A DNA stretch of 44,735 bases from a phage: the sequence record PZ166175.1; one strand, 5' to 3'. The position numbers and the translations under genes are program-made. The notes beneath the pieces are model-generated. The model was not told the origin of the DNA, searched no databases, and saw only the letters and a program-made list of their open reading frames with translations. Shown here in pieces: positions 2,381-44,520 of this stretch (within the stretch, counting starts at the first letter, position 1; the number at the start of each line of letters is the position of its first letter).

Positions 2381-2458
2381 TGGCGCTCCGCACTGGATTC
2401 GAACCAGTAACCTACGACTTAGAAGGTCGTTGCTGCTATCCGATTGAGCTAGCGGAGC
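2381..2458 (-). tRNA. tRNA-Arg (anticodon UCU), with encoded CCA
   Basis: hand-folded cloverleaf: 7-bp acceptor stem GCTCCGC/GCGGAGC, anticodon stem ACGAC/GTCGT with loop CTTCTAA, T-arm ACTGG-TTCGAAT-CCAGT, discriminator G, CCA. Confidence 0.85.
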
Positions 2459-3915: not shown

Positions 3916-3980
3916 TTCGATGGGGTAACTATAGCAAGTTACCCCAATACTGTTTTAGCAATTAGTGCTATTTAGCATTC
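3905..3980 (-). promoter_or_regulatory. early promoter cassette
   Basis: minus sense: AAATAGCACTAATTGCTAAA, 22 nt, TATAGT, TACCCCATCGAAATG; box lies in a GGGGTAACT/AGTTACCCC inverted repeat. Confidence 0.5.
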
Positions 3981-5284: not shown

Positions 5285-5356
5285 TCCTCTTTGTTTTCGA
5301 TGGGGTAATCATAGCTGACTACCCGATCCATTGTTTAGCAATTCGTGCTATTTACC
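5285..5356 (-). promoter_or_regulatory. early promoter cassette
   Basis: minus sense: AAATAGCACGAATTGCTAAA, 22 nt, TATGAT, TACCCCATCGAAAAC. Confidence 0.5.
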
Positions 5357-5990: not shown

Positions 5991-6287
5991 GTTGATACCT
6001 CGTTTCGTTTACTTCGTTTCAGTGATTGCCATCTTGCCACTTGTTTACGTGTCGGTCAACGTATTTTTATGTCTATTCCATCGCGTATACGTTTTTTCGG
6101 CCTTCAAGGTAGCGTCAGCACTGGTTGTAAACGCGCCGTATCCCCTGTATACCGTTTTTGAGGGTACTTTCCTATATATGTGCCTTTTTATTCCTACAAT
6201 GTCATCCCTTTCCTACAAGTGTCAGAATATCTGCGCGGAACATATCAATTATCTCACCAATGATCGGTATACACAGTATACATATAT

Positions 6288-6308
6288 ATAATAATAATAA
6301 TAATAATA
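6288..6308. repeat. (ATA)7 microsatellite inside a block shared with 24125..24187
   Basis: ataataataataataataata read directly; paralogous block has (ATA)5. Confidence 0.8.
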
Positions 6309-6519
6309 AAGTAAAATGTTGATATATATAGATATTATATTGTATATCGTGTGTATATCTCGCGTAAAAACGTAGGTTAGTGTTCGCTAACTTTTGTGAC
6401 GACACTGAGTATACATGGGTTACGCGTATGCGAAAAATGGCCCGGCAAGAATAAAAATCAACTTGTATGGTAGTCCTTCAATCCTTCATTCACTCACCCA
6501 CCACTTCATTTCACTTTTC

Positions 6520-6605
6520 GCAACAATCAAAAACATCATTGCATCTGAAGCAATATTGCTATATGTGCAATAATCACGTGAATCATTGCAATATCTGCAA
6601 CAATA
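6520..6605. repeat. iteron-like array, five GCAAYAAT copies plus GCAATATTGC and CACGTG palindromes
   Basis: gcaacaatc, gcaatattg, gcaataatc, gcaatatct, gcaacaata within about 85 bp of non-coding DNA. Confidence 0.5.
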
Positions 6606-6616
6606 CATAAATCTTA

Positions 6617-6691
6617 CGAATAGCACTTTTTGCTAAAGACATTAGGGTCTGGTGGGGCTATAGTTAACTCACCAACAGCGAGGGTGTAGAT
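6617..6691 (+). promoter_or_regulatory. early promoter cassette (plus orientation)
   Basis: AATAGCACTTTTTGCTAAAG, 23 nt, TATAGT, then RBS and ATG at 6692. Confidence 0.5.
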
Positions 6692-7305: not shown

Positions 7306-7466
7306 TGCTATTACCATCTGAGATAAATTATTTCGATCTTGAGGTTATAAGCGCCTATAGCGGAAAGGGCTGGCCTTGCGGAGACTGGTTCCGCGAAGAC
7401 CTGCTTGAGAGCCATGAAATTATGATCAAGGCGATAGAGAAGGCACGAAATAGCACTAATTGCTAA
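7302..7466 (+). CDS. hypothetical small protein (54 aa)
   Basis: hand translation MMLLPSEINYFDLEV...; ATGA overlap with upstream gene; 3' end runs into the next cassette palindrome. Confidence 0.35.
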   Translation: MMLLPSEINYFDLEVISAYSGKGWPCGDWFREDLLESHEIMIKAIEKARNSTNC

Positions 7467-7519
7467 AGCCCTTCGGGGATTTTCCTGTATATTCATCTCA
7501 TCGAAACGGAGGATTTGAA
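7445..7519 (+). promoter_or_regulatory. early promoter cassette
   Basis: AAATAGCACTAATTGCTAAAG, 22 nt, TATATT, CATCTCATCGAAAC, GGAGG, ATG. Confidence 0.5.
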
Positions 7520-7624: not shown

Positions 7625-7858
7625 GTTATAGATATAGAACTTGGCTATGGTCCTGATTATTATCTTATTGAAGAATTTGACGTTAAGGTAGAGATTTAAT
7701 GTTCGATAACTTTAATGACGCAATGGATGAGGCTTTTTACCGAGCCTCACTTGATGAAAGATTTACGGTTTAGTTCAGAAGGTTGACAAGATTGTTGTGC
7801 GAATCGTGCGCAAATCAGTACCTAACAAATTCATGTGGACAACGAAGAGAGTAAAAAA

Positions 7859-8278
7859 ATGACCATTAATTACTGCAAGATAACTGCCGGATGGAACAAA
7901 ACCACAAATAACTGGGTTAGCAACGAAAACGTACTCTACAAAGCTCGCGTTAAAAAGGTTCACCAATGGGTTGATGGTGTAGTTAAGGAGGTGGAATTTA
8001 AGCAAATCAAGAAAGATGGAAAATGGATTAACCTTGAAGAGCGCGGAAGATACATTAAGACTAAAACTCTTTACGTTACCCGAGTTAACCATAACTCGTC
8101 AGTTAAGAAGTCATTTAAGCTCGGAAAGAGATACCAGGTATCTATGCATGCTGGGATTGGACAAAATGCTGGGTATATTTATGACGAAGATGGTAATGCC
8201 TGGCAGCTTTACCGAAGTGAGGATGTTGGGTTCTTTACTCTCTGTGGCACGTACTATTTTGAGGCTCAATATCTGTAA
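7859..8278 (+). CDS. hypothetical protein
   Basis: ORF track 7835..8278; start moved to the ATG after GAGAGTAAAAAA. Confidence 0.5.
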   Translation: MTINYCKITAGWNKTTNNWVSNENVLYKARVKKVHQWVDGVVKEVEFKQIKKDGKWINLEERGRYIKTKTLYVTRVNHNSSVKKSFKLGKRYQVSMHAGIGQNAGYIYDEDGNAWQLYRSEDVGFFTLCGTYYFEAQYL

Positions 8279-8352: not shown

Positions 8353-9936
8353 ATGTTTGATTTCAACGAAGATAAACTATCTGTTGAACAGGTTATGGCA
8401 ATTGCTGCCGCAGAAAACCTTCCACCTTTGCGCGTCGCCATTAATGCTAATGGATATCGCCAGTCTCAATCATTCTGGAAGGCTCCGGTCGAGATTGATG
8501 CAGCTAATGACAAGTATCCAGTAATCTCACTCGGCAATGATGTTGATGTTGTTGGTAAATTGTCAGCTAACATTGCTCGGAGCGTGCAATTCCCCGAGTC
8601 TTCAGCTTACATGCACTTCCTGGGGTGTATTTCCGCTGCGATGCTAGGCCGCTTTACCGTTGAGTATCACGGAACTCAGCAACCGACCTCGCTTTATGTT
8701 GTGACGAGCCAGCCTCCATCTACAGGTAAATCAGCAATAAACTCACTTTCTATTGCTCCAATGATTGCTGAGACTGAGAGACTGAATGAAGTGCGAAAGC
8801 GCGAGCGCAAAAAGATTATGGCTAAACTATCTGCGTTATCCAAAGAGATGAAGCAGGAAAAATCCCCGTCAGAGATGGCTTCTCTTTTCGAGGAGAAAGA
8901 GGAGTTGGAGGAAAAACTCGAGAAACTATGCGATATCGTTTTCCCGGTTTCAGATACCACACCGGAAGGTCTTGCGCGAATAAACAACCGTCAGGGCAAC
9001 TTTGCAGTAATCTCGGATGAGGCAACGAGTGTAAACTCACTACTTGGCATGACCTATGGTGACGGATCAAAGAAAACGAACAGTGAGCTTGTGCTTAAAG
9101 CATGGGATGCGGGTAACGTATCTATCGCGCGTGCGAACGCAGAAAGCAACATGAGTTTCGTTGCTATGGGTTGTATCTCTGTAATTGCGCAGGATGAGAC
9201 TATTAACGCCATCATGAATGCTGGTGCGCGTGGTATCGGTGTGTCGGAACGTTTTCTTCTTGTACGTGAAAAATCACTCCTGGGAGAACGTGTATTCGTT
9301 GATGAAAATGGTGAATCAACTTACGAGCCAATTGACGGTGGGCTGAAGTCTGACTACTTCCGATTGGTTCACGAAATAATGAATGAGCAAGATGTAAAGT
9401 TGACGGTAAGTAACTCAGCGATGAAATACCTCAACCTAGCGCGTCAGGAAATGGAACCTCACCTTGCTGACGGCGGGAAGTATTCACACACAATGTTGCG
9501 AGGCGCGTTGGGTAAGTTCGATAAGCAGGCAATCAGGATTGCGGCTGTTCTTCACACTGTGCGTAACTGGTTCAACCCAAATGGCGGTAGCCCGCAGAAG
9601 TCCAGGGAGATTGATCTTGACACAATGCAAGAAGCTGTGATTATGTTCCAGGAGTTGAGCAAAACTTATCTGTCATCTGCTAACGCCGCTGGTCACGCTG
9701 GCGACAATGCCGAGATGAATAAGCTGATTGATATTCTGATTAAGCAAGGCAAGAACGGTAAAGGCGTAGTTGGTATTCGTTCATTATATGAAGCGGCTCG
9801 TAAAGTTAAGCCGTTCGAGGCTCAGGCTGGAGTAATGACGAAGATTAAAGATCACCTACTGCCAATGCTTGACGAGAAAAACTACACGTGCCTGATTGGT
9901 GATAAAGTTTACATTAATCCGCGATTGCTGGGGTAA
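8353..9936 (+). CDS. hypothetical 527-aa protein with P-loop-like and DE-box-like motifs
   Basis: ORF track; motifs PPSTGKS and VISDEAT read from the translation; own cassette promoter; no family confidently recognised. Confidence 0.6.
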   Translation: MFDFNEDKLSVEQVMAIAAAENLPPLRVAINANGYRQSQSFWKAPVEIDAANDKYPVISLGNDVDVVGKLSANIARSVQFPESSAYMHFLGCISAAMLGRFTVEYHGTQQPTSLYVVTSQPPSTGKSAINSLSIAPMIAETERLNEVRKRERKKIMAKLSALSKEMKQEKSPSEMASLFEEKEELEEKLEKLCDIVFPVSDTTPEGLARINNRQGNFAVISDEATSVNSLLGMTYGDGSKKTNSELVLKAWDAGNVSIARANAESNMSFVAMGCISVIAQDETINAIMNAGARGIGVSERFLLVREKSLLGERVFVDENGESTYEPIDGGLKSDYFRLVHEIMNEQDVKLTVSNSAMKYLNLARQEMEPHLADGGKYSHTMLRGALGKFDKQAIRIAAVLHTVRNWFNPNGGSPQKSREIDLDTMQEAVIMFQELSKTYLSSANAAGHAGDNAEMNKLIDILIKQGKNGKGVVGIRSLYEAARKVKPFEAQAGVMTKIKDHLLPMLDEKNYTCLIGDKVYINPRLLG

Positions 9937-10275
9937 GTGATGTTTCTGCTCGATATATTTAAGTTCTGCGAGTCGTATTCATACTTTACTCGTCAGCATT
10001 TGGCGCGATTCATATACCAACACAAGGACTCTGAGAGGTTTAGCAAGGCATCTGGTTTATCACATAGAGAGTTTTGCAGCGCTGCTTCAAAGGAGTTTTG
10101 CGCGAAGATGCTTAGTGCGGGTTACATTGATGGTAGGTGCGGTGAGTTTGTTAGCAAGGGGAGTTTAAAGAGGCCATTTGGCTTCAACTTTGAGGCACTT
10201 AGCGGGTATGAGAGCAAGTACATAAAAGAGATGATGAGCATAGGAAAAATGACTGACGACGAGTTATTTAGCTAA
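9937..10275 (+). CDS. hypothetical protein (112 aa)
   Basis: ORF track; start abuts the stop of the 527-aa gene; followed by a terminator. Confidence 0.45.
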   Translation: MMFLLDIFKFCESYSYFTRQHLARFIYQHKDSERFSKASGLSHREFCSAASKEFCAKMLSAGYIDGRCGEFVSKGSLKRPFGFNFEALSGYESKYIKEMMSIGKMTDDELFS

Positions 10276-13741: not shown

Positions 13742-13938
13742 CTCACAATCTCCACATCCAATTTTGAAACACTAACAACAATACCCGCATCGTTTTTAAC
13801 GATGTATCTATCTGAGTCTGCGGAAATTTCAAGAACAAAATAGCTACTCCCGCGCTTCAGAAGGTACTCATCAATATCCATCCGTGTGGTGTTGTTTCTT
13901 GGCTTAAACGTAACAACGAACGGTCTATTATTAATCAT
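13738..13938 (-). CDS. hypothetical protein (66 aa)
   Basis: ORF track; overlapping start/stop with neighbours. Confidence 0.45.
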   Translation of the reverse strand: MINNRPFVVTFKPRNNTTRMDIDEYLLKRGSSYFVLEISADSDRYIVKNDAGIVVSVSKLDVEIVR

Positions 13939-14255
13939 TCAAAATCCTCCGGGCAATCTTTCTTCATTTCTTCGACAGGAGGAAATACCTCCCATTTTCC
14001 GACACCCTCCCATACACCGTAATGGCATCGCTCAGCTATGAATGTTCGTCCAAAAAATTCATAGTTAGCCCAGAATAGACGAAACCAGTTTTGCATTTTA
14101 ATGCCGTGAACTTTTCCCAACACTTGGTAATACCTCGCCATACTTGCCGCCTCTACGGCAGGGAATATTAACCAGAGCCAAATCAACAAAAGCATAGCGA
14201 CCGCAATTATTGAGTTAAAAAATACCCCGCTCCAATAGATATATGTGTCAATCAT
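13935..14255 (-). CDS. hypothetical membrane protein
   Basis: ORF track 13935..14273; hydrophobic segment IIAVAMLLLIWLWLIFPAV; C-terminus EEMKKDCPEDFE duplicated in the next gene. Confidence 0.45.
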   Translation of the reverse strand: MIDTYIYWSGVFFNSIIAVAMLLLIWLWLIFPAVEAASMARYYQVLGKVHGIKMQNWFRLFWANYEFFGRTFIAERCHYGVWEGVGKWEVFPPVEEMKKDCPEDFE

Positions 14256-14470
14256 AAAAAATCCTTCGGGCAATCTTTCTTCATTTCTTCAATGTCAGCA
14301 ACCATGCGGTCGCGCCATGTTTCAATATCAGTGTTCAAGTAGTCTTCCTCAAAACTCATATCTAGGCAAAATGCTAAGTCCCAAGGGTTTTTGTTATATC
14401 CAGATTTCTTTAGCTCCTGAACCGCCATTAGCTTAAAAACTTCCCATTGCTTGTCAAAGGTTAATTTCAT
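14252..14470 (-). CDS. hypothetical protein (72 aa) sharing its C-terminal 12 residues with 13935..14255
   Basis: ORF track; C-terminus EEMKKDCPKDFL. Confidence 0.45.
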   Translation of the reverse strand: MKLTFDKQWEVFKLMAVQELKKSGYNKNPWDLAFCLDMSFEEDYLNTDIETWRDRMVADIEEMKKDCPKDFL

Positions 14471-14689: not shown

Positions 14690-14757
14690 TGTTTCGTTTC
14701 GATGGAGTAACTATATCGCATCCATGCGAAATCCCTTTAGCAATTCGTGCTATTTTG
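14690..14757 (-). promoter_or_regulatory. early promoter cassette
   Basis: minus sense: AAATAGCACGAATTGCTAAAG, 22 nt, TATAGT, TACTCCATCGAAAC. Confidence 0.5.
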
Positions 14758-17266: not shown

Positions 17267-17749
17267 ATGAATGCAGTAGACAAGCGAACCATTAACGGCA
17301 ATAACGGAACCATCCGCACCGAAGACAAAAAGAAACGTAAACGACCTTCAGGCTACTACGTTTTAAAAGATGAAGTAAGGGCCGGGCTACGCGCGCGGCT
17401 AGAGATTGTTCTTGATTTCTTCGGCACAAAGGCGAATATCGCAAAGCAGTTAAAGGTAACACCACAGGCCGTAGAAGAATGGTTTAAGCGCGGCATGATT
17501 TCTGCGCGTGGCGCCCAGCTATCGCACAACTACTATAAGCGAAATGGAGAAGGCTTTCGCGCTACATTCTGCCGCCCAGACCTGCAATTCGACGGTAACG
17601 GCAAGCCGCTAACCCTGCGGTGCAAAAAACGTCATATGCTGCGTGTTGTTACTGAGGCCGAATTAGCCACCAAGCCAGAGTGTCGATCATGGCGCAAGAT
17701 TAAGGCCGCTAACGAGGCAGCACGAAAAGCTAAAGAGCAAGGGAAATAG
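17267..17749 (+). CDS. putative DNA-binding protein (HTH)
   Basis: ORF track; segment TKANIAKQLKVTPQAVEEWFKRG resembles an HTH; basic N-terminus. Confidence 0.45.
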   Translation: MNAVDKRTINGNNGTIRTEDKKKRKRPSGYYVLKDEVRAGLRARLEIVLDFFGTKANIAKQLKVTPQAVEEWFKRGMISARGAQLSHNYYKRNGEGFRATFCRPDLQFDGNGKPLTLRCKKRHMLRVVTEAELATKPECRSWRKIKAANEAARKAKEQGK

Positions 17750-18759: not shown

Positions 18760-18825
18760 ATGCCTGAAAGATGATACAATCCAATTTAGCAATTCTTGCT
18801 GTTTTACAAATGGAGACTTTACACA
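18760..18825 (+). promoter_or_regulatory. tail fiber promoter candidate (TGATACAAT) with palindrome TTTAGCAATTCTTGCTGTTTT downstream of the -10
   Basis: extended -10-like TGATACAAT then the cassette-type palindrome between -10 and start codon. Confidence 0.4.
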
Positions 18826-21231
18826 ATGGCAATTTATGACTTAGGAACAGCATCACTAGCTGCAAATGGCGAGGTGACTGGAGTCGGTACGACATGGAAA
18901 GCACCACTCACTCTAATTCGAGTTGGTGCAACTATTGTATTTAAAACTGAGCCAGTTAAGATTTATACTATCTCTGAAATTATCAGCGACACTCAGATTA
19001 ATGTTTATAACCCTAATTCTGAAACTGTTCCTGCTGGGACTGGTTACGCGATTCTTGCTCACGATGGAATTACAGTTCAGGGGTTGGCTCAGGATGTTGC
19101 AGAAACCCTTCGTTACTATCAGTCGCGTGAAACAGAAGTTGCAGATGCTGTTGATGCATTTAACAATTTTGACTCTGCTGATTTTAAATCAAAGGTAACG
19201 CAGGTAAACACGCAGTACGGTGATGTTGTTACGATTGCAGAACAGGTAAACACGAAGTACGGTGATATTGTTACGATTGCAGAACAGGTTTCAAGTGATG
19301 CATCATCATCACAAATTAACGCCACCAATGCATCATCTTCCGCCGATAGAGCACAAGCAGCGGCAAACTCCGTGTCTGGATCATTAACTTTAAACTTCTC
19401 AGATGGAGGAACGGTAGAGTCTAAAAATCAGCAGGTTTTATACATCAATGGAAGTGATGTTAAGTCTTATGTCTGGACTGGGTCATTCCCGAAGACGATT
19501 CCAGCTGGCTCAACCCCAGATAGCGCAGGTGGTGTTGGTGCTTACTCATGGGTCAAGATTTATGACTCAAACCTGTTTGATTACGATGGTTTAAGTTCAA
19601 TCGGTAAGGTTAAATCAGTTTCAGAGTTATCTTGTTTGTCAGGTGAGATTGGTATTACTACGATTGAGCTAGAGTCTTATGTGGCTGGATTCAACCTAGG
19701 CGGTGGTACTCTTATCGCGTCAGATGCATCACTTCAGGTTAATAATGTAACTGTTTTTTCAGGGGACGGCGTCACATGGAGCCGTAAACTTAACGGTAGA
19801 AGAGCAACAGTATATGATGCTGGTTACACTGGTGATGGTGATATAGCTGCGGCAATAAACTCAGTAAACATGGCTGGCCTTGACTGCGTTGTTCCTGTAG
19901 ATGGCCTTGTGCAATCACAGATAAACATCGACGTATCAAGAGGTTCATTGATAGGCGAGAACAAGTGCAATATTAAAGAGTCCCCTGGTGCTGTTGGTGA
20001 ATATTTCGTAAACATATTCAACTCAAATACTGATTATGTTGATAGAGACTCGATATCATCAACATCATTGATATCTGGGATTTCATTTACTGGCCTTGGA
20101 GCACGCAAGTTCTGTGTAGGTGGATCAACATCAGGTGAGACTGGCGAATTAAGAATCGAGAACTGCGGAATCATATCAACTGGTGGAATTGAGTTCTTAG
20201 ACAACTCATATAGGATTCTTTTTGATAAGTGCGCAATAAGCAGGAGTTTTAATGAGACAATAACTTTTAGGTCGAGAGCTAACTCTGGTGAAGTTATGAA
20301 GTTTAATCACTGCTGGATTGTAGATAACGGAGGCCCAATCACCTTTGAGAATGGTCAGTTTATTTTTGATTCATGCTCGTTACCGGCAGGTAAAAAGAGT
20401 GGCTATTTTGACCCCACAGTAAGTCTGCACGATAACGCGACGGTAGTTTTCTCAAATGGAAATATAGAGTATCAGCCAGGTCAGAACTTCGTATCATTCC
20501 TGGTCACGGGAAGTTCGAGATTAAGCATAAAAGACACCACCATTCTTGTTCCGGATGGTTTTACGTCTGTTCCAATCGTAAGTAATGATGATGGCGTTGT
20601 AATCTTGAATAATTGTTCGCTTCCTCTATACGGAAGTACCACAATTGCTTCTGGTTTCCAAGCAAGGCAAGTTGTCGGCGGGTCTAGTAAAAAGGTTATC
20701 GCGAGAGGGTGCTTTCCGAGGGCTGGATTCCCTGTTAGTGATTGGAGCAAGGGATCAATTGTTAGCCCTTACATTAACAGCTTAAGCAATGGCAGCGGAC
20801 AGTTTCAGAATACTTCCAACTGGTCACTGTCGCAAACTTCTTCTGGATCGGTTACTGCCTCTATTGTCTCGCAGGTGCCCACAGGTATAACTGCTCAGTT
20901 TGATAGGTCATTCCTTTTGAATGTACCTGACTTAAACTCATCAGCGAACTTTACCACTAATGCTTATGATTGCGAGCCGGGTAGATACTTCCAGTTCGGA
21001 TTTTGGGCCATGAACACAACAAAAACATTAGCAAGTATTAGATTTTTAGATATTTCTGGTAATGCTGTTGAGGAATCTGTAGGTTACTACATACCGAAAG
21101 GTGGTATCTTCTCTTTTTACGCTCTTATATCAACGGTTCCCCAGGGTGCATATAGAGCCGAGATAAACTTTAACGTAGGACCATCCACTGGCTACCTTAT
21201 GTTACACAATGTTATTTATGGATTGATTTAA
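18826..21231 (+). CDS. tail fiber protein (putative)
   Basis: ORF track 18796..21231, start moved to MAIYDLGTASLA...; long Ser/Thr/Gly/Asn-rich protein; internal tandem duplication. Confidence 0.6.
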   Translation: MAIYDLGTASLAANGEVTGVGTTWKAPLTLIRVGATIVFKTEPVKIYTISEIISDTQINVYNPNSETVPAGTGYAILAHDGITVQGLAQDVAETLRYYQSRETEVADAVDAFNNFDSADFKSKVTQVNTQYGDVVTIAEQVNTKYGDIVTIAEQVSSDASSSQINATNASSSADRAQAAANSVSGSLTLNFSDGGTVESKNQQVLYINGSDVKSYVWTGSFPKTIPAGSTPDSAGGVGAYSWVKIYDSNLFDYDGLSSIGKVKSVSELSCLSGEIGITTIELESYVAGFNLGGGTLIASDASLQVNNVTVFSGDGVTWSRKLNGRRATVYDAGYTGDGDIAAAINSVNMAGLDCVVPVDGLVQSQINIDVSRGSLIGENKCNIKESPGAVGEYFVNIFNSNTDYVDRDSISSTSLISGISFTGLGARKFCVGGSTSGETGELRIENCGIISTGGIEFLDNSYRILFDKCAISRSFNETITFRSRANSGEVMKFNHCWIVDNGGPITFENGQFIFDSCSLPAGKKSGYFDPTVSLHDNATVVFSNGNIEYQPGQNFVSFLVTGSSRLSIKDTTILVPDGFTSVPIVSNDDGVVILNNCSLPLYGSTTIASGFQARQVVGGSSKKVIARGCFPRAGFPVSDWSKGSIVSPYINSLSNGSGQFQNTSNWSLSQTSSGSVTASIVSQVPTGITAQFDRSFLLNVPDLNSSANFTTNAYDCEPGRYFQFGFWAMNTTKTLASIRFLDISGNAVEESVGYYIPKGGIFSFYALISTVPQGAYRAEINFNVGPSTGYLMLHNVIYGLI
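19201..19284 (+). repeat. 42-bp tandem duplication (x2) inside the tail fiber gene
   Basis: caggtaaacacgcagtacggtgatgttgttacgattgcagaa repeated with 2 mismatches; encodes QVNTQYGDVVTIAE / QVNTKYGDIVTIAE. Confidence 0.85.
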
Positions 21232-21235
21232 CCAA

Positions 21236-22584: not shown

Positions 22585-22665
22585 TGCTAACCTCGCTCGT
22601 TGTTGATTGGGTAATCATACCACAACTTTTAATTTCGTCTTTAGCAATTCGTGCTATTTATATTT
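22585..22665 (-). promoter_or_regulatory. early promoter cassette
   Basis: minus sense: AAATAGCACGAATTGCTAAAG, 22 nt, TATGAT, TACCCAATC. Confidence 0.5.
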
Positions 22666-23822: not shown

Positions 23823-23824
23823 TC

Positions 23825-23900
23825 CGTGTCTCTCTGGTTGTTTGATTTCGATGGGTTAACTATATATTCGGCGAAGTAGCCAGTCCAATTGGTTTTGCCA
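23825..23900 (-). promoter_or_regulatory. degenerate early promoter cassette
   Basis: minus sense: TTGGCAAAACCAATTGG, spacer, TATATAGTTAACCCATCGAAA; upstream palindrome differs from consensus. Confidence 0.35.
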
Positions 23901-24143
23901 ATCGTTGACTTAAGTTTACGTGTTAATACCTTGTAATTCCGCGTAGGCATTGCCACTAGTTACGTTTCTTGGCATCTCAGCCCAGCTATAGCTCAATGTA
24001 ACCATCGTGTATATCGTGTATACCGTTTCTTGCAGAGGTGCATTGGTATAGCTGTCACGCAATACTGTATAAATCAACATGATATTGAAATTATAACCGG
24101 AACACTCTATAGAAGTAGTTACATGATATACACAGTAATATAT

Positions 24144-24158
24144 ATAATAATAATAATA
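24144..24158. repeat. (ATA)5 microsatellite inside the block paralogous to 6267..6337
   Basis: ataataataataata read directly. Confidence 0.8.
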
Positions 24159-24283
24159 AGAGTAAAAGGTTGATATATATAGATATTTTAATGTAACCAA
24201 TGCGTAACTAGGCGTAACAGGGCGTATATCATTTTTCGCGGATTAGATTGCATACATCGAGTTACATCGGTTACGTGTATGCA

Positions 24284-24367
24284 ATAGCACGAATAGCTAA
24301 AGACATTCCGCAGAGACAGCTGTATTATTACCACGTCGAAACTAAGCAACTTAACAAGGAATGCAAG
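24284..24367 (+). promoter_or_regulatory. early promoter cassette
   Basis: AATAGCACGAATAGCTAAAG, 23 nt, TATTAT, TACCACGTCGAAAC, AAGGAA, ATG. Confidence 0.45.
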
Positions 24368-24598
24368 ATGACTAACTTAATTAAATCAGCAATCATTGCC
24401 GCGGCAACAATCATGATGGTAGGTTGTTCTTCTGGCCCTCGCCCTGATGGTTGGTGCGCAACGTCCTCAAACGGCGTGTGCGTAGCTAAATGGAAAGGTG
24501 GCGTAGTTGTTCCGGCTGGTGAAATTGACATTCGCTACGATGGAATTAAAGGCTCCGGTGGCTCCGTTCGTGATTATGGCTCTAAGGAGTGGAATTAA
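24368..24598 (+). CDS. outer-membrane lipoprotein, Cor-like superinfection exclusion candidate
   Basis: ORF track 24248..24598 with start moved to ATG after RBS; signal peptide with lipobox MVGC; 76 aa. Confidence 0.5.
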
Positions 24599-44444: not shown

Positions 44445-44520
44445 TTTTTTCTCCTCTCGTTTGTGTAAGTTAACTATAAGCCATCCGTGTCTTTGGTGTT
44501 TAGCAATTCGTGCTATTTAA
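44445..44520 (-). promoter_or_regulatory. early promoter cassette overlapping the TerL stop codon
   Basis: minus sense: AAATAGCACGAATTGCTAAAC, 22 nt, TATAGT, TAACTTACACAAACGAGAGGAG, ATG. Confidence 0.5.

Follow-up and report, generated by a model that had tools for sequence, protein, structure and literature searches.

We report that a phage DNA of 44,735 nt (sequence record PZ166175.1, single strand, 5'-3'), referred to below as the window and analysed over its whole length, contains two related intergenic modules, A and B, which may be paired replication origins of the phage. This is the best single reading that we can offer, and we rate it at slightly under an even chance. The window corresponds approximately to the whole genome of a T1-like coliphage, a siphovirus of the Drexlerviridae (Braunvirinae, near Veterinaerplatzvirus), with the gene order seen in T1 and Rtp. 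Each region holds one module of ~290-310 bp (A, 6126-6432; B, 23997-24283), and the two lie 17.85 kb apart within non-coding intervals (5991-6691 and ~23823-24368) that are the counterparts of the two largest non-coding gaps of phage G8, of 776 and 596 bp. An origin was one of three functions put forward for these regions in the original prediction, the others being a divergent promoter hub and protein-binding arrays.

The two regions are paralogous, as had been proposed. In a blastn comparison the main high-scoring segment pair (HSP), 6268-6431 against 24127-24282 (166 columns, 71.7% identity), reached 91.1 bits, compared with 20.4±2.7 bits and a maximum of 29.7 bits for 194 mononucleotide shuffles of B, and co-linear HSPs flank it at 6088-6181 against 23961-24055 and at 6619-6643 against 24283-24307. 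With the (TA)n(ATA)n tract masked, the match retained 62.5 bits (E=5e-14), so the similarity is not one of low-complexity AT sequence only. All the blocks that the original prediction had named were found at or near the positions assigned to them: GTATACCGTTTTTGAGGG (6147-6164) pairs with GTATACCGTTTCTTGCAGAGG (24018-24038), the ~70-bp block 6267-6337 pairs with 24127-24187, GGTTACGCGTATGCG (6418-6432) pairs with GGTTACGTGTATGCA (24269-24283), and repeats of the GTGTATATC type are present in both regions. The shared sequence extends past the right-hand limit set earlier, up to a promoter repeat at 6617-6664 in A and 24281-24328 in B.

At the centre of each module is a core of 55-60 bp with 84-89% A+T, consisting of (TA)4, (TAA)7 in A or (TAA)5 in B, (A/G)AGTAAAA(T/G)G and then a 19-mer, GTTGATATATATAGATATT, that is the same in both copies. 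The A+T-richest 80-bp windows of the entire genome start at 6268 (88.7%) and 24117 (83.8%), the next best reaching 76%, and in a comparison of composition only the cores ranked as the two A+T-richest 80-bp windows in seven of seven whole genomes examined. The heptamer TATATAT is likewise concentrated within the two cores, which hold 14 of its 16 copies in this genome, 18 of 20 in T1 and 15 of 17 in Rtp. No Rfam RNA match and no conserved small open reading frame (ORF) were found in the core. Each core also carries the consensus for integration host factor (IHF), WATCAANNNNTTR, on the minus strand (TATCAACATTTTA, 6312-6324, in A; TATCAACCTTTTA, 24163-24175, in B), preceded by a tract of 90% A+T. 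These are two of only three matches in the window, where 1.4 are expected, and the single difference between A and B within the match falls at an N position. At best, the IHF site would be a lineage-specific accessory.

Short iterons surround each core. Their degenerate core is YGTAWM, and they occur as GTGTATAYC and GCGTAAC types. The exact GTGTATAYC is present in five copies in the window, every one of them in A or B, and YGTAWM occurs 13 times in A (3.1 expected; p=2e-5) and 14 times in B (2.4 expected; p=3e-7); in this statistical sense the suggestion of protein-binding arrays is borne out. B and then A are the densest 300-bp windows for YGTAWM genome-wide in six of seven genomes (this one, A110b, Msk, T145P1, 12469II and T1). 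The layout is common to the two copies, (+++) ... (--)[A+T core](+++ at 10-11 bp) ... (--), with spacings of 9-11 bp within arrays and with the innermost arrays facing away from the core on both sides; the outer-left forward sites lie ~100 bp to the left, and the distal reverse sites ~35-45 bp beyond the right arrays (Table 1). Between the outer-left and inner-left iterons of A, at 6193-6225, there is also a direct repeat, TTCCTACAA(T/G)GTCA, in two copies 19 bp apart, possibly a second binding motif; region A of T1 has ATTCCAG/TGGAATA repeats at a different position. The GTTACAT repeats at 10-bp phasing may resemble OmpR half-sites.

Braunvirinae, Rogunavirinae and Tempevirinae all have recognisable A and B modules, and more diverged ones occur in Tunavirinae (T1). 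Among Braunvirinae genera the B core is nearly invariant (Rtp, ESCO41, IME253, CEB_EC3a, DTL and G8), and the 19-mer GTTGATATATATAGATATT is invariant in both A and B copies except for one mismatch in Rtp A; these copies are too alike to count as independent footprints. The two Rtp copies can be aligned with each other over 161 nt (75.8% identity, E=1e-31). The modules of AHP42 (Rogunavirus) and TLS (Tempevirus) keep (TA)n(AAT)3-4, CTAA(A/G), TATATA(T)AG(A/G)TAT and flanking iterons. The TLS iteron differs (TGTTCAC/TGTTCCA), and its orientation pattern around the core is, as read by eye, the same; a changed iteron in a preserved pattern would amount to co-variation on both sides of the core. 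The module architecture is present in T1 as well, with GTGTTAATC in three copies, TGTTACAC, and GGCGTAAT in two copies around 70-90 bp of A+T, and with little sequence identity between A and B. The A copies of IME542, Msk and Rtp have a B-type right flank (ATGTAACC..GCGTAA) in place of the GTGTATATC iterons, which suggests that A and B have occasionally exchanged sequence; in Rtp A the (AAT)4 is of B type as well.

The microsatellite within the core had been described as seven units in A and five in B, and its length had been thought liable to vary. The counts stand in the TAA register, whereas in the ATA register they are (ATA)6 and (ATA)4. The idea of variable length did not survive a comparison of ~14 relatives, in which the number of units was steady in each copy class: among eight phages, every A copy but that of Rtp, with four, has six AAT units, and B copies have four in nearly all, with DTL, IME542 and A110b differing by one unit. 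In the B copy of IME542 one TA has been lost and one AAT gained, and in that of A110b one TA has been gained and one AAT lost, for a net change of 1 bp each; the A110b deviation could be a sequencing artefact. We rejected a phase-variable (contingency) microsatellite because the changes are few, involve single units and are partly offset by an opposite change in (TA)n. The conserved length per copy class and the offsetting changes point to a constraint on spacing, and the (TA)n(AAT)n tract has the look of a length-constrained spacer.

Neither the PLSDB plasmids nor 5,426 E. coli genomes contained a match to the module, and a locus search based on exoVIII returned close relatives only. In IMG/VR there were 14 matches to the 19-mer GTTGATATATATAGATATT, three of them in unrelated contigs and probably due to chance. 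In one high-GC IMG/VR contig of 60.7 kb (L012, 7900-8100), a small A+T island flanked by GTGAAGACC iterons of either orientation contains an identical GTTGATATATATAGATATT, and a NusG-like gene, terS and terL lie downstream of it; this is probably either a convergent control site or a chance match. The nearest matches over region A were 'Campylobacter' phage A110b and vB_EcoS-12210I, at 91-93% identity. The A110b record (MG065688.1, flagged UNVERIFIED) is 92.6% identical over region A, and its host label looks doubtful.

The gene for a DUF3987 helicase lies ~1.7 kb downstream of A and is transcribed in the same direction, away from the module. An AlphaFold model of the protein, built on a 28-sequence alignment (predicted local distance difference test score 89.3, predicted template modelling score 0.87), had MCM subunits as its top Foldseek matches; a sequence search against the Protein Data Bank gave no match, and fold comparison alone was productive. 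In the model it takes the form of an MCM-like AAA+ protein whose C-terminal winged-helix domain would occupy residues ~445-527. Residues 451-521 of the model run helix-strand-helix-helix-strand-strand, the order typical of a winged helix, and we would assign the winged-helix matches to them. Other DNA-binding candidates in the genome are a Cro-like protein (17267-17749) and the homologues of two proteins described in the T1 record as helix-turn-helix-like, CPTT1_070 and CPTT1_073.

We compared the locus with those of four distant phages (L035, L036, L038 and L039) whose DUF3987 helicases are 35-43% identical to this one. In all four the helicase operon starts at a large intergenic region, and in three an iteron-flanked A+T-rich region lies just upstream of it, the contig of the fourth (L038) ending within the region. 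In L035 (9060-9680), the A+T-richest window of the locus (88%) is found there, together with 13 of 14 TATATAT and 12 of 14 GGGGG[GT] iterons, which are forward on the left and reverse on the right; L039 (68-632) has the same pattern, with 10 of 13 GGGGT[AG] and 6 of 6 TATATAT. The corresponding region of L036 (8513-9199) again contains the A+T-richest window, with CTTACCG and TTTTGGGG three times each. L038 (1-610) opens with (TAA)n of at least nine units followed by TATATTTATATAGAGATGG (TATATTTATATAGAG), where the contig is cut, and has five (G/T)GTAAG sites ~450-600 bp upstream of the helicase. These regions suggest that an iteron-flanked, (TA)n-rich core travels with the helicase family while the sequence of the iterons changes.

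Table 1. Features of regions A and B and other features of the window
Feature	Position	Strand	Details
A outer-left iterons	6126-6164	+	YGTAWM at 6126, 6137, 6146; includes GTATACCGTTTTTGAGGG; homologous to B 23997-24038; inverted repeats with 6265-6281 and 6409-6424 (repeat search)
A inner-left iteron pair, GGTATACAC AGTATACAT	6266-6282	-	9-bp spacing; YGTAWM(-) at 6268, 6277; exact GTGTATACC on minus strand at 6266; inverted repeat with 6345-6357
A core	6283-6340		(TA)4 6283-6290; (TAA)7 6289-6309; AGTAAAATG; GTTGATATATATAGATATT 6318-6336
A right iterons, TTGTATATCG TGTGTATATCTC GCGTAAAAAC	6340-6371	+	11-bp spacing; YGTAWM(+) at 6341, 6352, 6363; exact GTGTATATC at 6351
A distal inverted iterons, GAGTATACATGGGTTACGCGTATGCG	6409-6432	-	YGTAWM(-) at 6410, 6419; shared with B 24250-24283
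A-specific insert, ~175 bp	6440-6616		GCAACAATCA/CATTGCA repeats; palindrome 6535-6574; missing from B and from the A/B alignment
B outer-left iterons, GTGTATATC GTGTATACC	23997-24038	+	includes GTATACCGTTTCTTGCAGAGG; exact GTGTATAYC at 24007, 24016; YGTAWM(+) at 23997, 24008, 24017
B inner-left iterons, GTTACAT GATATACAC	24118-24134	-	exact GTGTATATC on minus strand at 24125; YGTAWM(-) at 24118, 24127; left limit of homology with Rogunavirinae
B core	24135-24191		(TA)4 24139-24146; (TAA)5 24145-24159; GAGTAAAAGG; GTTGATATATATAGATATT 24169-24187
B right iterons, ATGTAACCA ATGCGTAACTA GGCGTAACAG GGCGTATATC	24190-24231	+	four, helically phased at 11, 10, 10 bp; YGTAWM(+) at 24192, 24203, 24213, 24223
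B distal inverted iterons, GCATACATCGAGTTACATCGGTTACGTGTATGCA	24250-24283	-	YGTAWM(-) at 24261, 24270; ~90% conserved in Rogunavirus AHP42
Rightward promoter, helicase-terminated operon	6617-6664	+	21-nt repeat ATAGCACTTTTTGCTAAA and AAGACA-17-TATAGT; promoter scan
Rightward promoter, cor operon	24281-24328	+	21-nt repeat ATAGCACGAATAGCTAAA and AAGACA-17-TATTAT
Candidate leftward promoter, A	6031-6059	-	TTGACC-17-CAAGAT; crude position-weight-matrix score 9.5, weak prediction; outside module
Candidate leftward promoter, B	23859-23887	-	TGGACT-17-TATAGT and the family's conserved leader; repeat family D5; outside module
21-nt repeat ATAGCACnnnTTGnTAAA, other copies	3954-3971, 5334-5351, 7450-7467, 14736-14753, 22640-22657, 44499-44516	-, -, +, -, -, -	part of the 18 copies
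DUF3987 helicase, candidate trans-acting partner	8353-9936	+	527 aa; DUF3987 / phrog_2373
tRNA-Arg(TCT)	2381-2458	-	sole RNA gene found

Leftward of A, on the minus strand, small early genes are followed by terS and terL and then by the structural genes; rightward of A are small genes and the helicase gene. Leftward of B are a small gene, exonuclease VIII and an Erf-type annealing protein, to which the annotation of relatives adds a DNA methyltransferase (G8) and ssb (Rtp, T1), and the genes rightward of B encode the cor lipoprotein and a membrane protein. The modules had been thought to occupy the two strand-switch points of the genome. In fact there are six such switches, three divergent and three convergent, and the third divergent one (17165/17267, beside the Cro-like gene) has no such module and none of the iterons. 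For the small ORFs in the 'leaders' to the left of each core, no conservation was seen with the small genes that the T1 and AHP42 annotations place there. The small proteins encoded beside A and B are acidic and without a Pfam match; inspection, no alignment having been run, revealed no obvious similarity between them.

Several lines of evidence lead us to favour replication origins at the strength given above: the clustering of the iterons, their shared orientation pattern, the position of the cores as A+T extremes, the family-wide conservation and the steady microsatellite length. In addition, the core is not explained as a promoter (see below), as an Rfam RNA or as a conserved ORF, and an MCM-like helicase is encoded ~1.7 kb from A, with iteron and A+T-rich regions recurring upstream of distant helicase operons. 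From these sequences we infer a protein that binds the iterons, a core that melts and replication that starts there. In such a mechanism, a phage-encoded DNA-binding protein would occupy the YGTAWM iterons, the prime suspect being the DUF3987 helicase acting through its winged helix and the alternative a small helix-turn-helix partner from the same operon. The arrays, in the order (+++) ... (--)[core](+++) ... (--), would position the bound protein on either side of the least stable DNA of the genome, (TA)4(TAA)5-7 and the invariant TATATAGATATT block, with the mid-core IHF site of this lineage allowing IHF to assist. Melting of the core would admit the helicase and then the phage primase. Copy A would act upstream of the helicase operon, and copy B would be a second origin or a cis partner beside the recE-erf-ssb operon. 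A more elaborate version of this scheme, which we regard as improbable, is an archaeal-style initiation in which the MCM-like AAA+ helicase would read the opposed iterons around the unwinding element with its winged helix and load itself, the two modules would cooperate (bipartite or by looping), and the length-conserved (TAA)n would be a single-strand-binding trinucleotide array like DnaA-trios and not a passive spacer.

Some of our observations weigh against origins. The most conserved part of the module is the A+T core sequence and not the iterons, a pattern seen less often in a plain unwinding element than in a promoter or the site of a specific protein. A and B of T1 have in common only composition and short iterons, and the cores of T1, TLS and AHP42 lack the IHF consensus, which has one mismatch in Rtp A. 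The helicase gene is distant from copy B and not linked to it, and iteron binding by the winged helix of the helicase is purely conjecture on our part. The upstream regions of the distant helicase operons are divergent promoter regions too, so that the association is also compatible with regulation. GC skew tracks the coding strand at all six strand switches and is uninformative on an origin. Finally, both modules lie between flanking divergent promoters, directly upstream of a rightward promoter associated with a 21-nt direct repeat, the very place in which one would look for regulators of transcription.

That repeat, aaATAGCACnnnTTGnTAAAA, is known as an intergenic direct repeat from TLS, T1, Rtp and Rogue1 (PMC11447400). 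The window has 18 copies, where 0.68 are expected, and the right-hand block shared by A and B (6617-6637 and 24281-24301) consists of two of them, the match at 6620-6637 having no mismatches and that at 24284-24301 one. In both regions the repeat is oriented with transcription, 72-85 nt before the start codon. It occurs genome-wide and does not define A and B, and the core and YGTAWM iterons are separate from it. As a family, the ATAGCACnnnTTGnTAAA repeats have a TATAGT-type -10 element ~23 nt downstream, followed by a conserved leader, TTACCCCATCGAAAC, and they contain a dyad, TAGCA-N5-TGCTA, centred near -42, a geometry like that of class II activators.

Promoters within the cores themselves were sought with a crude sigma-70 matrix. 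The best scores inside the cores, 7.6-8.2, are matched by a shuffled-core mean of 7.8-8.3 (95th percentile 11.3). The sole candidate with a consistent position points leftward (A, TTTACT-16-TATTAT; B, TTTACT-18-TATATT) and coincides with the phiSITE prediction in the CEB_EC3a record; it is lost in the B copies of IME542, A110b and Msk, which keep the module, and has no equivalent in T1, and we rejected it. By eye, a rightward TTGATA box in the core lacks a conserved -10 element, and a perfect TATAAT at the (TA)n/(AAT)n junction lacks a -35 element. The promoter hub of the original prediction is thus not supported for the shared block itself; better candidates lie at the edges of the intergenic regions, and the best of these (6031-6059, 6636-6664, 23859-23887 and 24300-24328) contain no iterons.

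The most serious alternative, possible though in our judgement unlikely, is that the modules control transcription, with the iterons serving as operators or upstream sites for a phage regulator that co-ordinately switches the divergent early operons beside A and B. The Cro-like protein or the helix-turn-helix proteins encoded at 7835-8278 and 9937-10275, for example, could be that regulator, and the core may harbour a leftward promoter of lac-like type, with TTTACT as -35, (ATT)n as spacer and TATATT or TATTAT as -10. Besides the position of the modules between divergent promoters, the 10-11 bp phasing of the direct repeats fits this explanation, such phasing being typical of some regulators (Cox/Apl and OmpR/PhoB types). 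The GenBank record of CEB_EC3a has two phiSITE-predicted back-to-back promoters exactly on the core, the leftward candidate is positionally consistent in most Braunvirinae copies, and hand alignment gives similar candidates in AHP42 (TTTAGA-17-TATATT and CTTAGA-17-TATAGT). A tract serving as promoter spacer would also account for the conserved (AAT)4 length, and homology between phages ends just past the putative start site. However, an A+T content of 84-89% over 80 bp exceeds what a promoter requires, the iterons do not overlap the better flanking promoters, and regions of this kind, with unrelated iterons, are seen again in unrelated phages ahead of their homologous helicase operons. The Cro-like gene at 17267 is not adjacent to A or B, and its own control region, the third divergent promoter region, is without iterons. 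The promoter test, this iteron-free region and the helicase association together weaken the case for transcription control; origin and regulatory functions need not be mutually exclusive.

The remaining explanations fare worse. We think it very unlikely that the module, or region A as a whole, is the packaging (pac) site for terminase. Short repeats flank an IHF site in the pac of P1, an architecture of short repeats and IHF consensus that is also seen here. According to the SU57 paper, the genome ends and pac of T1-like phages lie in an untranslated region that matches A, and the GenBank records of T1, Rtp, Rogue1, IMM-001 and OzMSK open inside region A, at ~6555-6563. These openings, however, fall in the A-specific insert (~6433-6600), which is missing from B and is not part of the shared module; the convention may simply copy T1, and terS is ~4-5 kb from region A. 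Classical mapping of T1 reportedly yielded only one pac series. T1, Rtp and AHP42 have kept the insert in their region A; it may be a conventional genome-end or pac neighbourhood separate from the shared module. Less probable again, to the point of being hardly credible, is a host-driven origin in which (G/A)TATACACA would be a DnaA box (compare R2, TTATACACA) and (TAA)n a DnaA-trio array, DnaA opening the core with IHF. By eye, GTATACACA (6267), ATATACACA (24126) and TGTGTATAT (6350) match TTATNCACA at 8 of 9 positions, both cores have a perfect IHF consensus, and the box-like elements lie 7-13 bp from a run of NAN trinucleotides, which formally fits the published search rule for a basal unwinding system (DnaA box with at most 2 mismatches, spacer of at most 16 bp, at least 3 NAN; PMC8287927). 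That rule is trivially satisfied in any A+T-rich repeat such as (TAA)n, and the preferred 3'-GAT-5' trio is absent. Moreover, the box-like element decays to TATACA(T/A) in other copies and subfamilies, the iterons of T1 and TLS are not DnaA-box-like, and the phage has its own helicases and primase. As for the absence of any function, two A+T-rich low-complexity spacers might be alike by chance or through a recent neutral duplication; the similarity is in part simple sequence, (TA)n and (ATA)n, and A and B of T1 align through A+T-rich sequence only. Against this, co-linear blocks span ~300 bp, much of the match persists when the microsatellite is masked, both copies are retained in four subfamilies, and the 19-mer is all but unchanged across Braunvirinae genera. 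The masked alignment and the cross-subfamily retention effectively refute the reading of chance similarity.

Iteron-flanked A+T-rich origins opened by self-loading helicases are familiar from the SaPI ori with Rep and from SCCmec Cch. Compared with these systems, there are two copies per genome here, at the distance given above, copy A is separated from the helicase gene and not immediately beside it, and the core has a conserved trinucleotide microsatellite and an invariant 19-mer. Phages with two-site origins include SPP1 (oriL/oriR, with G38P) and P4 (ori/crr, with alpha). There, two distant paralogous cis regions likewise share repeats, those of the initiator, and binder and function have been demonstrated, whereas for the present modules both are putative; furthermore, SPP1 oriL sits inside the initiator gene and the A and B modules are intergenic. 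The origin of lactococcal phage c2 lies between divergent promoters. At archaeal origins, inverted origin recognition box (ORB) elements around a duplex unwinding element are bound by Orc1/Cdc6, which load MCM. The likeness of our modules to these is structural and architectural only, since no Orc1/Cdc6 homologue was found in this phage and the iterons, at 6-9 bp, are far shorter than ORB elements. Among regulatory systems, the paired operators OL/OR of lambda and the p4/p6 control region of phi29, which lies between divergent promoters, resemble A and B in having paralogous arrays at two divergent early-promoter regions and an A+T-rich, bendable centre. Here, by contrast, the arrays consist of asymmetric direct repeats instead of dyad operators and lie clear of the better promoter candidates, the regulator gene lies elsewhere, and the promoter scores of the core do not exceed chance.

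T1 belongs to the seven classic T phages, and to our knowledge its replication origin has never been mapped. T1-like phages are widely used in therapy cocktails and are feared contaminants of fermentations. A 2024 re-annotation of TLS notes that T1-like phages have no identified origin, and it found no lambda-type iterons anywhere in TLS, only the 21-nt repeat (PMC11447400). In the literature apart from the older T1 and Rtp papers we found no prior description of the A and B modules, and we found no usable T1 transcriptome or origin mapping. The kind of element is well known; what is new is these sites, which make the origin of the T1 family directly testable. Two precise candidate sites are defined (~6126-6432 and ~23997-24283), which have counterparts in T1, Rtp, TLS and Rogunaviruses, along with a candidate motif for binding and a candidate initiator-helicase of MCM-like fold. 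If the modules are regulatory instead, they would be the shared early-operon control sites of the whole phage family. Cloned modules could serve as resistance elements that titrate an origin or an operator.

Several smaller features of the window were recorded. An Rfam scan of the whole window matched tRNA-Arg alone. Near-identical hairpins resembling intrinsic terminators, AAAAAA(C/G)CC..GAAG..GGG, occur between late genes at 21235, 28982, 34976, 36000, 38645 and 40336. A perfectly phased 42-bp tandem duplication (95% identity) is present at 19201-19284 within an 811-aa ORF (18796-21231), the counterpart of a gene that related annotation labels as tail fibre. A 41-nt repeat (13933-13973 and 14250-14290, 93% identity), among small minus-strand ORFs at 13.9-14.3 kb, is possibly the mark of a local duplication.

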